DNA from: Candidatus Thorarchaeota archaeon
GTDB lineage: Archaea > Asgardarchaeota > Thorarchaeia > Thorarchaeales > Thorarchaeaceae
DNA length: 29,866 nt
Assembly (NCBI GenBank): GCA_020348985.1
Contig: CP070761.1
Coordinates: forward strand, 600,388 to 630,253
Direction of reading: 5' to 3'
Positions 6,849 to 11,631 of the stretch are shown piece by piece (position 1 is the stretch's first letter; each line of letters starts with the position of its first letter). A program made the translations under genes and the position numbers. Under the pieces are notes generated by a model. That model had not been told where the DNA came from. It did not search any database and saw only the letters and a program-made list of their open reading frames with translations.

Positions 6849-7370
6849 TCACTCATATTCATGTAGTCGCGGGTCGATCTTTCTCCACTCACTATCTCTC
6901 TCAGAAAACGACCTTCTCTCTTCCTCAGTCGTGGCAACTACGTCGAACGTGCAATTCTCATCGCCACATGCCTCGCATGTCAAGTGTATCATCTTTGCAT
7001 TGGCATCCTTAGCCATCCACTTGGCCGCATCCACATAGCAGTAAAGACATCCAAGATCGAGTGCATCATGTTCTTTAAACACCTTGGCGAGAGTGCATCC
7101 CCGAGCATAGTACCTGCCCTCCTCATCTTGGCCAGAATCTTCATACACTCCAAAGGCCGGCAAGTCGGGCTTCCCCTGATTCACCCTTTCAGTAATTCGC
7201 TGACCATAATCCATGATTGCTTTCACTATCAGGTCTTTGCCTCTTCCTTCGCCCAATGCATCCACTATTGTCCTCGAGAATGACAGGTGAAGGAGGGCGA
7301 CTCTCGACATTGCACCCTCTGCCGCTGCAGCTGCTTCCCGGACGGTGACAGTAGACTCTTGACCCTTCAT
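6849..7370 (-). CDS. L-2-amino-thiazoline-4-carboxylic acid hydrolase-like (V4R/HNOB-like) protein
   Basis: GCTLAKVF, GCLYCYVDAAK and CEACGDENCTF Cys pattern; N-terminal helix DALGEGRGKDLIVKAIMDYG. Confidence 0.75.
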   Translation of the reverse strand: MKGQESTVTVREAAAAAEGAMSRVALLHLSFSRTIVDALGEGRGKDLIVKAIMDYGQRITERVNQGKPDLPAFGVYEDSGQDEEGRYYARGCTLAKVFKEHDALDLGCLYCYVDAAKWMAKDANAKMIHLTCEACGDENCTFDVVATTEEERRSFSERDSEWRKIDPRLHEYE

Positions 7371-7463
7371 AGCATTCCCGCCACACACGGAGTTCTGTAC
7401 GACTTCTCAAGTATATAGCCTATGCTTTATCAAGAGGACCTCGCATACTCCCGAGTGAGACGA

Positions 7464-7688
7464 ATGACCTGTTACTTCAAGAATTCTGGGATGACCGACC
7501 TGTTTGAAGAAATCGGAATTGAGGTAACAAATGAGAATGTGGTGCTTGTCGATGAGAACATTCACGATTTTCTAAGCGTCGATTATCCAAATTGTGCAGC
7601 CGCTTGGAAACTTGTACGCAAGAAGCTAGCCGAAGACGGTGAGGGATTCAAAAAACGTCTGCAAGAAGTCCTGTCCGAATTCGGATAG
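7464..7688 (+). CDS. Small conserved hypothetical protein (MTCYF...IH..L.VDY.NC...WK family)
   Basis: 74-aa ORF from ATG 7464. The motif layout resembles a small archaeal/bacterial family of unknown function. Confidence 0.75.
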   Translation: MTCYFKNSGMTDLFEEIGIEVTNENVVLVDENIHDFLSVDYPNCAAAWKLVRKKLAEDGEGFKKRLQEVLSEFG

Positions 7689-7723
7689 GAACTTCTCGCA
7701 GAGGAAGAAGATCCGCACTTGCT

Positions 7724-7906
7724 CTACGAATCCTCGTTAGTGGGTCGATTACTTCCACTATCTTCGTCATCATCATCGAGGTAGCGCTGGATTCGATAGG
7801 GTCCTGGATCTTGGCCTGTTAGCACGATCAGGATAGCTCGAGTCAGGGGATTCGCGAGGAGTTCCAGAAGCCTGTCCATCTCCTCGTCCTTGGCTTTCTC
7901 ACTCAA
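7724..7906 (-). CDS. Small protein resembling the N-terminal helices of ArsR-type wHTH, with acidic tail
   Basis: TTG start overlaps the upstream stop by 8 nt (alternative ATG 7879). LLELLANPLTRAILIVL matches the ArsR 'L..L.NP.R..IL..L' pattern. Confidence 0.6.
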   Translation of the reverse strand: MSEKAKDEEMDRLLELLANPLTRAILIVLTGQDPGPYRIQRYLDDDDEDSGSNRPTNEDS

Positions 7907-8693
7907 TGCCCGCAGCCTCCAGCTGCAGTGTCCTAGACCTCACGCGTGCCGTCAGCGCAATTGTGAGAAGGGTAGTGAAGATAGTCCCGAGGAGCATGCC
8001 CACCCATTGTAGTGAGTAGAGCGCGAGCTCTCCTGAGTAGGAAAGCAGCAAGAACAGGAAACCGTTGACAAAGGATCCAATCGCGAAGAACGTGATGATC
8101 AGAAATCCGTTTCTGTTGGGAGAACGAATCAGGAACCAGTTCAGCTGCAGAAACACCAGAGATGAGAGCCCAAGCTTCATTTTTCTGATTATGCCAACCA
8201 TCTTCCATGTTGACCTTAAAGCTATAACCAGCGCCGCGAGTCCCAGAGCAACCGATGGCCAGAACAGGGTCCAAGAGACTCCGTAAGTCAACACCGCTGC
8301 CACTAGGCTGAATACGCCTACAAAGAGGCCGAAGACAGTACCCATCTGGTACAAGAACAGATCCAGTTCACGCTTTGGACTCATTGACATGACCGCGGAT
8401 AGAACGCCGTACTGGTCGATTTTGACATCACGGCCTACCTGATCCACGAGAATCAGTGCTTTCTTTCCGAGGTCGGTTATCATGTAGTCTCCATTCAATC
8501 TCTCGATTAGTCCCGCTTCCGTGAGTTCTTTGAGATGGTAGTTGAACTTCCCGCTCATCAGTGACGGATCTAGACCGAGTACTTGCATTATCTCAGTATA
8601 AGTGGCAGTGCCCTTTTCTGAGATCTGACGCATTATCGTTCTTCGTGTTGAGTTCGACAACGCCTTCAATACATCTTCAGACGATGAGTTCAT
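7899..8693 (-). CDS. Membrane-anchored ArsR-like winged-helix transcription regulator (N-terminal wHTH + ~4 TM helices)
   Basis: VLKALSNSTRRTIMRQI...TYTEIM...SGKFNYHLKELTEAGLIER...YMITDLG, followed by four long hydrophobic segments. Confidence 0.88.
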   Translation of the reverse strand: MNSSSEDVLKALSNSTRRTIMRQISEKGTATYTEIMQVLGLDPSLMSGKFNYHLKELTEAGLIERLNGDYMITDLGKKALILVDQVGRDVKIDQYGVLSAVMSMSPKRELDLFLYQMGTVFGLFVGVFSLVAAVLTYGVSWTLFWPSVALGLAALVIALRSTWKMVGIIRKMKLGLSSLVFLQLNWFLIRSPNRNGFLIITFFAIGSFVNGFLFLLLSYSGELALYSLQWVGMLLGTIFTTLLTIALTARVRSRTLQLEAAGIE

Positions 8694-8764
8694 TTTCAGT
8701 ACCTGTGTATGACTCGGATTCTAGATATTTAACCGATTTTCACTAACTTTCTCGACAGGCATAA

Positions 8765-8806
8765 AACAGTTCTGTCAAAAAAAATTGACAGGCTCGCGCA
8801 ACTGTT
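8765..8806. promoter_or_regulatory. Nested inverted repeat, candidate operator in divergent promoter region
   Basis: CTGTCAA-A6-TTGACAG (8772-8791), flanked by AACAGTT (8765-8771) and AACTGTT (8800-8806). Confidence 0.55.
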
Positions 8807-8834
8807 GCCTAGATTCTGCTCTTGGAAACTACGT

Positions 8835-8852
8835 TTCGCTAGCCTTATCTTG
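8835..8852 (+). promoter_or_regulatory. Conserved upstream motif copy 1 (TTCGCTAGCCTTATCTTG), probable promoter of GTPase 1
   Basis: Repeated at 9607 and 10341, 81-89 nt before each GTPase ATG. Confidence 0.6.
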
Positions 8853-8922
8853 ACTGCCGAGTCCAGTCTTCCGAACAAGCAGACCTTTGTGGATGAGCTC
8901 GGCGACTCGGGGAACTCTTCTC

Positions 8923-9525
8923 ATGGAATACAACTGGCAATTCAAGACGGTTCTTATTGGAGATGGCGCCGTCGGGAAAACTTCAATTCGTCGCAACTAC
9001 ATGAAAGAGGGCTTCAAAACAACACATATTCCTACGATAGGTGTCGACTTCGCCAAGAAGCTAATCAACTTCTATGGTGAGATTGTCAGGTTCGTGATTT
9101 GGGACCTCGCCGGACAGCATAGCTTCGAGAGGGTCAGAGGCCATTATTACCAAGGCGCTCAGAGTATTGTCCTTGTGTACTCTGTTATGGATAGAGAGTC
9201 ATTTGACAACGCATCCAAATGGCTGGTCGAAGCCTACAGGCATCTCGGGAAGCTTCCTCCCACAGCGATTCTTGCAAACAAGGTGGATTTGCGTCAGTCA
9301 GATTCTGATGAAGACATTGTCACAACAATGGAAGGTCTGGAGTTTGTTGATTACTTCAAAAGGAAACTAGCTATCCCCGCCATATTCAGGGAGACTTCTG
9401 CCCTTACGGGATACAACATCAACGAGACGTTCAATGAGCTTATTCGAATGATGATGCGGAATACTGAGGATCCCCCTCCACTCGTAACAAGGCAGGAATC
9501 TCAGACGCAGGAAGAGACAGAGTAG
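8923..9525 (+). CDS. Rab-like small GTPase, paralogue 1
   Basis: G1 GDGAVGKTS, G2 PTIGVDF, G3 WDLAGQ, YYQGA, G4 NKVD, G5 ETSAL. ATG 8923 aligns with the paralogue starts. Confidence 0.96.
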   Translation: MEYNWQFKTVLIGDGAVGKTSIRRNYMKEGFKTTHIPTIGVDFAKKLINFYGEIVRFVIWDLAGQHSFERVRGHYYQGAQSIVLVYSVMDRESFDNASKWLVEAYRHLGKLPPTAILANKVDLRQSDSDEDIVTTMEGLEFVDYFKRKLAIPAIFRETSALTGYNINETFNELIRMMMRNTEDPPPLVTRQESQTQEETE

Positions 9526-9606
9526 AACTCTGATGATGACTCCAGAGGCTCAAGAAGACTCCTGATTTGTAGTTCTCGATTTCAAAGTGGGAATGCGCTG
9601 ACTCTA

Positions 9607-9624
9607 TTCGCTAGCCTTATTTTG
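9607..9624 (+). promoter_or_regulatory. Conserved upstream motif copy 2 (TTCGCTAGCCTTATTTTG)
   Basis: 17/18 identical to copy 1. Similarity continues through to the ATG. Confidence 0.6.
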
Positions 9625-9695
9625 ACTGCTGAGTAAAGTCTTCCGAATCAGTGGACCCATTGAAAATGGGATTGAGGACTCGGGGCACTCTTCTC

Positions 9696-10298
9696 ATGGA
9701 ATACAACTGGCAATTCAAGACGGTTCTTATTGGAGATGGCGCCGTCGGGAAAACTAGTATCCGCCGCAACTACATGAGAGAGGGCTTCCAGTCAACACAC
9801 ATCCCGACCATCGGCGTAGACTTTGCAAAGAAAATGGTCTATTTCGAAGGCAAGATTGTGAGATTCGTCATTTGGGATCTCACCGGACAGCATAGCTTCG
9901 AGAGGGTAAGAGGACACTACTATTCAGGCTGCCACAGCATCGTTCTCGTGTACTCTGTCACAAACAGAAAATCATTCGACAACGTTCCCAAATGGCTTGT
10001 TGAAGCCTATAGACACCTGAGGAAGCTTCCTCCCACGGCGATACTTGCAAACAAGATAGATCTGCGCCAGTCAACTTCTGATGAGGATTTCGTCACCACT
10101 GTGGAAGGTCTGGAGTTTGTCGACTACTTCAAGAGGAAATTGGCAGTCCCGATCATATTCAAGGAAACCTCGGCTCTGACTGGGGAGAACATAGACGAAA
10201 CTTTCACAGAGTTAATCCGAATGATGATGCAGCACACGGAGGGTTTCCCTCAACCCACGACTCAGGTCGAGTCTGAGAAAGCAGAAGAGACAGAGTAG
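9696..10298 (+). CDS. Rab-like small GTPase, paralogue 2
   Basis: GDGAVGKTS, PTIGVDF, WDLTGQ, NKID, ETSAL. Same length as paralogue 1 and the same EETE C-terminus. Confidence 0.96.
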   Translation: MEYNWQFKTVLIGDGAVGKTSIRRNYMREGFQSTHIPTIGVDFAKKMVYFEGKIVRFVIWDLTGQHSFERVRGHYYSGCHSIVLVYSVTNRKSFDNVPKWLVEAYRHLRKLPPTAILANKIDLRQSTSDEDFVTTVEGLEFVDYFKRKLAVPIIFKETSALTGENIDETFTELIRMMMQHTEGFPQPTTQVESEKAEETE

Positions 10299-10340
10299 CT
10301 CTCAGTCACTCTCTGGTGTGGGATACTGGTTGCGACCTTA

Positions 10341-10358
10341 TTCGCCAACCTTATCTTG
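10341..10358 (+). promoter_or_regulatory. Conserved upstream motif copy 3 (TTCGCCAACCTTATCTTG)
   Basis: 16/18 identical to copy 1, although the remainder of the leader has diverged. Confidence 0.55.
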
Positions 10359-10421
10359 CGCAAGAAATCTAGTAGGGCCCCGGAAGAACTATTACATTCA
10401 CTATGTTGGAGCGCCTCACCG

Positions 10422-10982
10422 ATGGAACGTACTTGGTATTTCAAGAGCGTATTACTGGGTGAGGGCGCCGTCGGGAAAACTTCAATTCGCCGCAACTACA
10501 TGAGAGAGGGCTTCAAGTCAACACACATCCCAACGCTCGGCGTCGACTTTTCAAAGAAGCTGATTGATTTCTATGGCGAGATTGTGCAATTCATTATCTG
10601 GGATCTAGCTGGCCAACCGAGCTTCGAGAGGGTAAGAAAACACTACTATCAAGGGTGTCAGAGCCTCATTCTTGTCTACTCAGTCGTCGACCGAGACTCA
10701 TTCGACAACTCCCTAAGGTGGCTGACTGAGGCCTACAAGCACATAGGAGAACTCCCGCCGACAGCTATAGTTGCCAACAAGATCGACCTTCGTCCTTCAA
10801 CAGAGCCCAGTTCTGTAGTCACAACTCAGGAGGGTCTCAAGTTCGCCAATGACATAAAAGAGAAGCTGAAGTTTCCGCTCGTCTTCAAGGAGACCTCTGC
10901 TTTGACAGGAGAGAACATCGAGGAGACCTTCACGGAACTTCTCCGGTTGATGATTGTGCGCGCAGAAGAGGCTCCCACGTAG
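10422..10982 (+). CDS. Rab-like small GTPase, paralogue 3
   Basis: GEGAVGKTS, PTLGVDF, WDLAGQ, YYQGC, NKID, ETSAL. Shorter C-terminal tail. Confidence 0.96.
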   Translation: MERTWYFKSVLLGEGAVGKTSIRRNYMREGFKSTHIPTLGVDFSKKLIDFYGEIVQFIIWDLAGQPSFERVRKHYYQGCQSLILVYSVVDRDSFDNSLRWLTEAYKHIGELPPTAIVANKIDLRPSTEPSSVVTTQEGLKFANDIKEKLKFPLVFKETSALTGENIEETFTELLRLMIVRAEEAPT

Positions 10983-10995
10983 GCGAGTCCGACCA

Positions 10996-11631
10996 CTATA
11001 CTGAGACTATTAGATACACGCCCCCACAGAATGAAATCTGTTCGTATACAACGTAGAGACCTTCTCCCCACAGCATAGTCTTGGTCTCATCAGCCGCCCA
11101 ATAATACTCATAGTCATCCCATTCATGTGCTAGCTCTCTACGAGCCGCCGCCCGTTCTGCAAAGGACCGAAAGGAAACGTCTCCAATCACAATTCTGCCT
11201 TCTTTGTTCAAGAGCTCATCATGCATTCGTTTGATTGTATCAAGTTTCGCGTTGAGATCTAGGTGATGGATGGAATATGCAGACACAATAAGGTCAAACC
11301 CGATGCGTAACTCAGATGGCCATTCGGATCGAATATCTGCTTTCACTAGGTGAGCAGAGGGGACCTTTTGCGCCGCTTTTTCCAGCATCTTTGATGAATA
11401 GTCTAGTCCCCAGATTTCGCAGTTGAAGTCGACGAATCTCTTGGCCAGGCCTCCGGTGCCAATTCCCATATCCAAGACTCTCATTCCCTCCTTGGGGTCG
11501 GAGAGCTCGACCATCCTGTCTAGGACTTGGTGATATCCGGCGAATGGAAATCTATCCGACACGGTGTCGACGAAGTCGTCGTAGTTTTCTGCCCAAGAGT
11601 CGAACAATTCTGGAGTTCTTTCTGGAGTCAT
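10996..11631 (-). CDS. Class I SAM-dependent methyltransferase
   Basis: FDSWAENYD, VLDMGIGTG, GLDYSSKML, FDLIVSAYSIHHL. Confidence 0.93.
   Translation of the reverse strand: MTPERTPELFDSWAENYDDFVDTVSDRFPFAGYHQVLDRMVELSDPKEGMRVLDMGIGTGGLAKRFVDFNCEIWGLDYSSKMLEKAAQKVPSAHLVKADIRSEWPSELRIGFDLIVSAYSIHHLDLNAKLDTIKRMHDELLNKEGRIVIGDVSFRSFAERAAARRELAHEWDDYEYYWAADETKTMLWGEGLYVVYEQISFCGGVYLIVSV

Follow-up and report, generated by a model that had tools for sequence, protein, structure and literature searches.

How the expanded small GTPases of Asgard archaea are regulated is an open question, and a dedicated membrane-sensing regulator would be a valuable handle on it. Such a regulator seemed to be at hand in a stretch of 29,866 nucleotides (nts) from a Candidatus Thorarchaeota archaeon (GenBank assembly GCA_020348985.1, contig CP070761.1, positions 600,388 to 630,253 of the forward strand), hereafter called the window. 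Between its positions 7724 and 10982, the gene for a protein with a winged helix-turn-helix (wHTH) and four transmembrane (TM) helices, together with an overlapping open reading frame (ORF) of 60 amino acids (aa), faces away from three genes for Rab-like GTPases, with a palindrome in the gap between them. Does this regulator, aided by its small partner, govern the GTPases next door, as the original prediction of a switch responsive to the state of the membrane would have it? The evidence presented below argues against such a link, and the locus should not be cited as an instance of it. What is left is a predicted but well-defined regulator–operator pair restricted to Thorarchaeota, with a conserved promoter of 36 nts, an orphan four-helix domain, and a conserved micro-protein. 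In the reading that we favor, at a probability of roughly 0.7, the wHTH protein is a one-component regulator that is tethered to the membrane, controls its own expression and has a micro-protein coupled to it, and its adjacency to the GTPase genes is incidental. Judged by comparison of related loci, positions 7724–8791 are a self-contained two-gene cassette confined to Thorarchaeota, and the module of regulator and small partner, complete with operator and promoter, is newly delineated.

The regulator, its small partner and their promoter

The first ~80 residues of the regulator pass the Pfam cut-offs of three families: DUF7347 (38.6 bits; cut-off 27.6), HTH_20 (34.5; cut-off 27) and HTH_5 (26; cut-off 22). 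An AlphaFold2 model built on 25 homologues (predicted local distance difference test score 78.6) places the wHTH at residues 1–88, where helices 3–12, 15–27, 32–38 and 48–59 precede a wing at 63–72 and a further helix at 74–88. A weakly modeled linker then leads into four long hydrophobic helices, spanning residues 106–136, 141–171, 194–220 and 228–263. The outer loops of this membrane domain are only 5–8 residues long, while the lysine- and arginine-rich loop connecting TM2 to TM3 and the C-terminus both lie, according to charge pattern and model, on the same cytoplasmic side as the wHTH. The model thus unites a DNA-binding domain and TM segments in one polypeptide, with the DNA-binding part in the cytoplasm. 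An alignment of homologues further reveals an invariant NWF-x2-RSPNR motif in the cytoplasmic TM2–TM3 loop, alongside additional invariant motifs in the juxtamembrane linker.

The family comprises 147 homologues of the regulator, 43–62% identical and nearly all labeled Thorarchaeota. Searched against the PDB with Foldseek, the regulator matched through its wHTH part only, with no match for the TM domain; the best structural matches of the wHTH are AF ArsR (1y0u), CadC and SmtB, at a template modeling score (TM-score) by target of ~0.66. An exhaustive profile search with the linker and membrane part returned 15 clusters among 1.84 billion representatives. In its full-length matches the domain is placed as in the window regulator, and most of the others are short fragments; all 15 clusters belong to the regulator's own family, whole or fragmentary, so that no distant relatives of the TM domain emerged from this search. 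The Cys/His metal sites usual in ArsR/SmtB metalloregulators are missing, since the regulator is devoid of cysteine and has a single histidine, H53, located in a conserved FNYH motif. Its NCBIfam scores stay below the cut-offs both for metalloregulators (NF033788, HTH_metalloreg; 36.2 bits vs. 55) and for SdpR autorepressors (NF033789; 21.3 bits vs. 100). A literature search on DUF7347 found no paper. Separately, in locus L006 (8001–8792; equivalent to G024:C50 and L050), the regulator orthologue has an in-frame TAA after ~93 codons, while the remaining gene sequence and the mini ORF can still be recognized; it is either a pseudogene or the product of a sequencing error.

The second gene of the cassette begins before the first one ends, its start overlapping the regulator stop by 8 nts in the window. 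For the comparison, 38 loci were fetched with flanks of up to 8 kb; among these, and in a second cassette copy within the same genome, the small ORF that follows the regulator is homologous, and in 27 other loci it overlaps the regulator stop by 8, 11 or 14 nts. In the window, as in 27 of 27 other loci, the mini start is preceded at 10–11 nts by a TGGAG(G) sequence nested within the conserved Leu-Glu codons of the regulator. This embedded ribosome-binding site explains why E259 of the regulator is invariant, and its conservation in all compared loci is strong evidence for translation of the mini ORF. Longer homologues of the regulator (P0014, P0117 and P0083) were considered as regulator–mini fusions and ruled out, as they bear N-terminal extensions or insertions instead. 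By the measure of these coupling signals, the regulator and its small ORF form a genuine functional pair that has been conserved. The wHTH protein with four hydrophobic helices and the overlapping 60-aa ORF are present just as first described. Of the module that had been proposed, the pairing of regulator and small partner stands, whereas the inclusion of the bank of Rab-like GTPases is not supported.

The homologues of the mini protein are 45–60 aa long and share invariant M1, L14, L17, P20, L26, G31 and P34. In the model, two helices (residues 3–18 and 20–29) are broken at the invariant proline, and the remainder is a disordered, usually acidic tail. Neither Pfam, PADLOC nor NCBIfam yielded a family match for the protein; Pfam searches with all 27 members gave only two single-member matches, with E above 0.1, and an Atlas feature search returned no usable match and uninformative structural rows. 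The protein had initially been labeled a miniature wHTH. This label was abandoned in favor of a helix-kink-helix with an acidic tail, as the likeness of the mini protein to helices 1–2 of the regulator in hhalign, which a truncated wHTH would call for, is not significant (E 0.1, probability below 1%).

The putative control region of the cassette lies directly upstream. Alignment of the 135 nts before the regulator start in 33 loci showed that the control region is conserved at the DNA level across the family, as a distal palindrome, a proximal imperfect palindrome and a TATA box. The distal site has the consensus yTGTCRA-N6-TYGACAr. It reads CTGTCAA-A6-TTGACAG in the window (8772–8791), and recurs exactly or with one mismatch 94–108 nts upstream of the regulator ATG in 13 other loci, the in-genome paralogue included. 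The proximal site follows ~13 nts past the distal one, as TGTCRA-N6-TMGTGA or as more symmetric CACGA variants, and runs into a GTGAAAA that resembles a transcription factor B recognition element (BRE); the TATA box, TTAAATA, is located ~31 nts before the regulator ATG. In all 33 loci, and irrespective of the neighboring gene, the half-palindromic proximal site abuts the BRE and TATA box. Two loci, L032 and L034, have a covarying perfect palindrome, TGTTGAGA-TT-TCTCAACA, in place of the distal site. Both arms have changed together, as they would in a site recognized by a symmetric dimer. On this pattern of conservation, a dimeric regulator very probably binds the palindrome. Because palindrome and core promoter are kept upstream of the regulator whatever lies beyond, they make up the cassette's own control region. 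The palindrome had been described as nested, of which the perfect inner repeat is confirmed, but the outer arms (8766–8772 and 8797–8803, 7 nts each) were not seen in the other loci of the upstream alignment, occur in this window only and are probably due to chance.

Congruent with this assignment, the 36-nt core promoter is better preserved than the coding DNA: mean identity to the window is 80% in the core, 68% in the wHTH coding DNA, 56% over the whole coding sequence and 28% far upstream. The exact 6+6 palindrome occurs twice in the 3.16-Mb genome, against 0.2 occurrences expected, and both are found at the two cassettes. A position weight matrix (PWM) of the core promoter, trained on other genomes only, scores 54.9 bits at the window cassette, 38.8 bits at its paralogue and no more than 9.3 bits elsewhere in the genome. 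Short contigs of foreign organisms from the same sediments match only 8718–8759 of the compared stretch, which fits the conservation of the core promoter.

The divergent GTPase genes

On the other side of the gap, the original description likewise proved accurate. The three ORFs match PF00071 (Ras) at E ~1e-41 (4e-41 for GTPase 1), and among PDB entries they match "Thorarchaeota Rab" 7ezb best (E 2e-32 for GTPase 1), followed only by Rabs (Rab1, Rab8, Rab10 and Rab23). Like Thorarchaeota Rab (7ezb; PMC10933270) and the eukaryotic Rab1 and Rab8, they possess the G1–G5 motifs (GDGAVGKT, DLAGQ, NKxD, ETSAL) and Rab-like switch motifs. The G3 box of copy 2 reads DLTGQ, vs. DLAGQ in copies 1 and 3. 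In contrast to eukaryotic Rabs, the triplet is a lineage-specific tandem and lacks a C-terminal prenylation cysteine, its members ending in ...QEETE, ...AEETE and ...EEAPT. Since the N-termini are conserved, the likely true starts are the ATGs at 8923, 9696 and 10422, and the gap separating regulator and GTPase 1 (8694–8922) accordingly measures 229 bp, as against the ~230 bp first noted. Independent sediment-metagenome contigs cover 7510–8745 (X1) and 8711–8982 (X7) with no differences across the regulator/GTPase 1 junction; as they bridge it, the arrangement is not an assembly artifact.

The GTPase genes also appear to be equipped with a promoter element of their own. In the phylogeny of the Ras-family proteins encoded by this genome, the three copies are monophyletic (support 99/94), which points to lineage-specific tandem duplication, and a three-way alignment of the upstream regions reveals an invariant block of 18 nts, TTCGCnAnCCTTATnTTG, positioned 72–88 nts before each GTPase ATG. 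Genome-wide, the exact block occurs only before the three copies. An unlinked fourth paralogue (C1:265051) has a version with two mismatches ~200 nts ahead of it (C1:264849), and in other genera (L048 and L049) similar CTAGCCTTATTTTG sequences are found in front of related GTPase genes. The block is probably a promoter or regulatory element belonging to this GTPase subfamily. No operator-like site within two mismatches is present upstream of GTPases 2 and 3, and neither the operator scan nor the core-promoter PWM detected one in the 18-nt motif regions of the GTPases.

Is the adjacency itself conserved? A Ras-family gene is directly adjacent to or divergent from the cassette in none of the 33 related loci, within flanks of up to 8 kb, and no family recurs among the two nearest genes on either side across the compared loci. 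The immediate upstream neighbors elsewhere include HTH_10 regulators, UPF0047, ATC-hydrolase-like proteins, PP-loop ATPases, NUBPL/ParA, DsrE and methyltransferases. The second cassette of this very genome, with a regulator copy 53% identical (C1:1684021), faces an HTH_10 regulator, not a GTPase. Among same-family genomes the cassette was found in 8 of 24 and not found in the other 16. Neither of the two same-genus genomes (98% and 88% complete) yielded a cassette; each has a single triplet-related GTPase, orthologous to the unlinked fourth paralogue and, in one of them, situated beside a P-type ATPase. With ~29 Ras-family genes in a genome of ~3,000 genes, we estimate the chance of one of the two cassettes abutting a Ras-family gene at a few percent. 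The synteny half of the check proposed along with the original prediction, a survey of regulator homologues against GTPase genes, thus found the adjacency to be absent in related genomes. On these comparisons, the adjacency of cassette and triplet appears to be a feature of this genome alone, and the evidence does not support control of the GTPases.

The proposed switch and its alternatives

A mechanism for the favored reading can be sketched from the conservation of the gene pair, its coupling signals, the cis-elements that are unique to the cassettes within the genome, and the absence of a conserved GTPase linkage. In the product of gene 1, a cytoplasmic ArsR-type wHTH would be joined to an orphan membrane domain of four helices that has hardly any extracellular loops; translation of gene 2 would start from a conserved ribosome-binding site of its own, situated within the terminal part of gene 1. 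The regulator dimer would most likely bind the distal perfect palindrome and the proximal imperfect palindrome in its own promoter. Occupancy of the proximal site would then block access of the TATA-binding protein (TBP) and transcription factor B (TFB) to the BRE and TATA box, thereby repressing its own transcription. The geometry counts in favor of repression, with the proximal site abutting the BRE and the TATA box 31 nts before the ATG; a site abutting the BRE/TATA is where archaeal repressors usually bind. A signal arising within the membrane or at its inner face, the mini protein, or both may modulate DNA binding. The three Rab-like genes would be the outcome of lineage-specific tandem duplication, each with its own promoter element.

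Several considerations weigh against this reading. The predicted DNA binding and repression are read from conservation and position. A regulator with no detectable target but itself is odd, and weaker or single half-sites elsewhere would be missed. The related loci are fragments of metagenome-assembled genomes, 43–62% identical, and the comparison is without a near-identical independent genome. The distal palindrome is situated ~44 bp upstream of the GTPase 1 motif and could also act on the GTPase 1 promoter, although an incidental effect of this distal operator on GTPase 1, limited to this genome, has only a slim chance of being real. Finally, a gene encoding a protein of 376–392 aa, composed of a Ras domain and a long coiled coil, lies 1.3–3 kb from the cassette in 7 of the 33 loci. 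It is found upstream in L006, L007 and L011 and downstream in L024, L027, L028 and L031, two arrangements in both of which other genes intervene, and it represents a different paralogue group, the counterpart of C1:1722336, located 38 kb from the second cassette. Though recurrent, its proximity is, by a rough estimate, compatible with chance and shared ancestry.

Could the cassette instead be a selfish or conflict-type module, devoted to addiction, immunity or defense? The membrane domain would then be the effector or immunity part, the wHTH would serve autoregulation only, with the mini protein as antagonist. We consider this unlikely, while noting its resemblance to tightly autoregulated toxin–antitoxin or SdpR/SdpI-type immunity operons. 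In Bacillus subtilis, SdpR is an ArsR-type autorepressor functionally coupled to the polytopic membrane protein SdpI (PMC2910880), and the regulator matches the SdpR family weakly. The compact, overlapping gene pair and its extremely conserved autoregulatory promoter with no other target in the genome would suit such a module, as would the patchy spread among same-family and same-genus genomes and the presence of one or two cassette copies per genome in unrelated neighborhoods. However, no toxin or enzyme domain is recognizable in the cassette proteins, and PADLOC gave nothing but Csa3/CARF matches to the wHTH region of the regulator and none for the mini protein. The family, having diverged to 43% identity yet remaining within one phylum, is evidently old. 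A mobile-element origin was rejected, as no relative was detected in viral contigs (IMG/VR) and no flanking direct or inverted repeats, nor mobility genes, were found.

The proposal with which this analysis began, that regulator and mini partner sense membrane state and control the adjacent Rab-like array through the shared intergenic region, is improbable. It draws on the divergent arrangement with the distal operator close to the GTPase 1 motif, on the Ras-family genes that 7 of 33 loci have at less than 3 kb from the cassette, and on the literature, in which Asgard small-GTPase genes are described as generally sitting outside operons with their regulators and possible control by specific transcription factors is suggested (PMC10933270). 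But the operator belongs to the cassette, being present where no GTPase is near; the Ras genes near other cassettes are of another paralogue group and separated by other genes; and the regulator/GTPase adjacency is unique to this genome, where the second cassette lacks it. GTPases 2 and 3 are, moreover, devoid of an operator-like site, and all three copies share a separate motif with an unlinked paralogue. The idea of a switch for a whole bank of Rab-like GTPases is therefore not sustained.

A more elaborate scheme, an Asgard-specific membrane-tethered switch whose micro-protein titrates or gates the DNA-binding domain and whose distal operator has, in this genome, been recruited for the first gene of the newly expanded Rab-like array, is likewise a long shot. 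Its analogue would be the eukaryotic microProteins, which act in that manner. Least credible by far is that the palindrome forms a hairpin in a transcript (an intrinsic terminator or an RNA element of another kind) instead of being bound by a protein: a terminator consensus scan does list 8791–8772 of the minus strand as terminator-like, with a 7-bp stem followed by a T-run, but such matches are no more numerous in the region than in shuffled sequence, Rfam gave no match on 7300–11200, the half-site sequence is itself conserved beyond pairing and adjoined by a related half-palindromic site, and the palindrome lies upstream of both divergent genes and of the cassette TATA box, so that neither mRNA should contain it.

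Related systems and layout of the locus

By analogy, the regulator would functionally belong with the membrane-bound one-component transcription factors (ArnR, ToxR, CadC) and with the ArsR-family autorepressors. Like ArnR/ArnR1 of Sulfolobus acidocaldarius (PMC6396743), it combines a DNA-binding domain with C-terminal TM helices that tether it to the membrane. No sequence relationship between the two was found, however, and the regulator is set apart by its four TM helices, the orphan membrane domain with the NWF-x2-RSPNR motif, the coupled micro-protein and the dual-palindrome promoter. Moreover, ArnR activates archaellum genes (PMC6396743), whereas the cassette regulator is without a detectable external target. 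With the ArsR/SmtB autorepressors, SdpR included, it shares an ArsR-type wHTH and palindromic operators, predicted here, in its own promoter. Unlike in SdpR/SdpI, the wHTH and the membrane domain reside in a single polypeptide, and no search showed the membrane domain to resemble SdpI. Other archaeal DUF7347-wHTH fusions (RDD, MEDS, NrdD, receiver) also place the wHTH N-terminal to a sensor, enzyme or membrane module. Of these, the RDD fusions are similar to the regulator in length and are membrane proteins as well, but its TM domain is unlike RDD (TM-score 0.33) and, unlike the other DUF7347 fusions, is limited to ~15 sequence clusters, essentially from Thorarchaeota. The predicted regulator–operator pair could add to the few known membrane-tethered archaeal transcription factors and is testable in vitro, and the promoter offers a defined Asgard BRE/TATA–operator architecture for future genetic tools.

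All five ORFs, two on the minus strand and three on the plus strand, were located where they had first been placed (Table 1).

Table 1. Features of the cassette and the divergent GTPase genes, in positions of the window
Feature	Position	Strand	Basis or remark
Mini ORF, 60 aa, TTG start; coupled partner of the regulator	7724–7906	−	ORF list
Shine-Dalgarno-like GGAGG for the mini ORF	7916–7920	−	Embedded in the regulator's conserved C-terminal Leu-Glu codons
Regulator, 264 aa: ArsR-type wHTH (DUF7347), linker, four TM helices	7899–8693	−	Pfam, model
Cassette core promoter, 36 nts	8723–8758	−	Aligned in 33 loci
TATA box TTAAATAT	8725–8732		Minus-strand reading
BRE-like GTGAAAAT	8736–8743		Minus-strand reading
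Proximal imperfect palindrome	8740–8758		Minus-strand reading
Distal operator (putative), perfect palindrome CTGTCAA-N6-TTGACAG	8772–8791	.	Sequence and recurrence in other loci
18-nt upstream motif of GTPase 1, TTCGCTAGCCTTATCTTG	8835–8852	+	Putative own promoter element
Rab-like GTPase 1, 200 aa from ATG; longest ORF starts at 8887	8923–9525	+	Pfam Ras
18-nt upstream motif of GTPase 2	9607–9624	+	Three-way upstream alignment, genome scan
Rab-like GTPase 2, 80% identical to copy 1	9696–10298	+	Pfam Ras, alignment
18-nt upstream motif of GTPase 3	10341–10358	+	Three-way upstream alignment, genome scan
Rab-like GTPase 3, 68% identical to copy 1	10422–10982	+	Pfam Ras, alignment

Beyond the mini gene, and convergent with it, lies a candidate ORF of 88 aa (7422–7688, plus strand), 35 nts from the mini stop and without a Pfam or NCBIfam match. 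At a distance of one or two genes from the cassette, ATC_hydrolase-like proteins (PF14196) are encoded in the window (6849–7388, minus strand) and in L024 (7398–7895), with homologues in L027 and L031; L024, L027 and L031 are three loci of the other cassette clade. Elsewhere in the genome (C1:666286–666804, equivalent to 1423–1941 of locus L003), a second kind of membrane-tethered ArsR-like protein is encoded, which is 152 aa long and consists of a wHTH and two TM helices. Its gene is directly followed by one for an ABC-transporter ATPase, and a palindrome, GTCAATAATCATTGAC, with half-sites related to those of the cassette operator, begins 60 nts upstream of its ATG.

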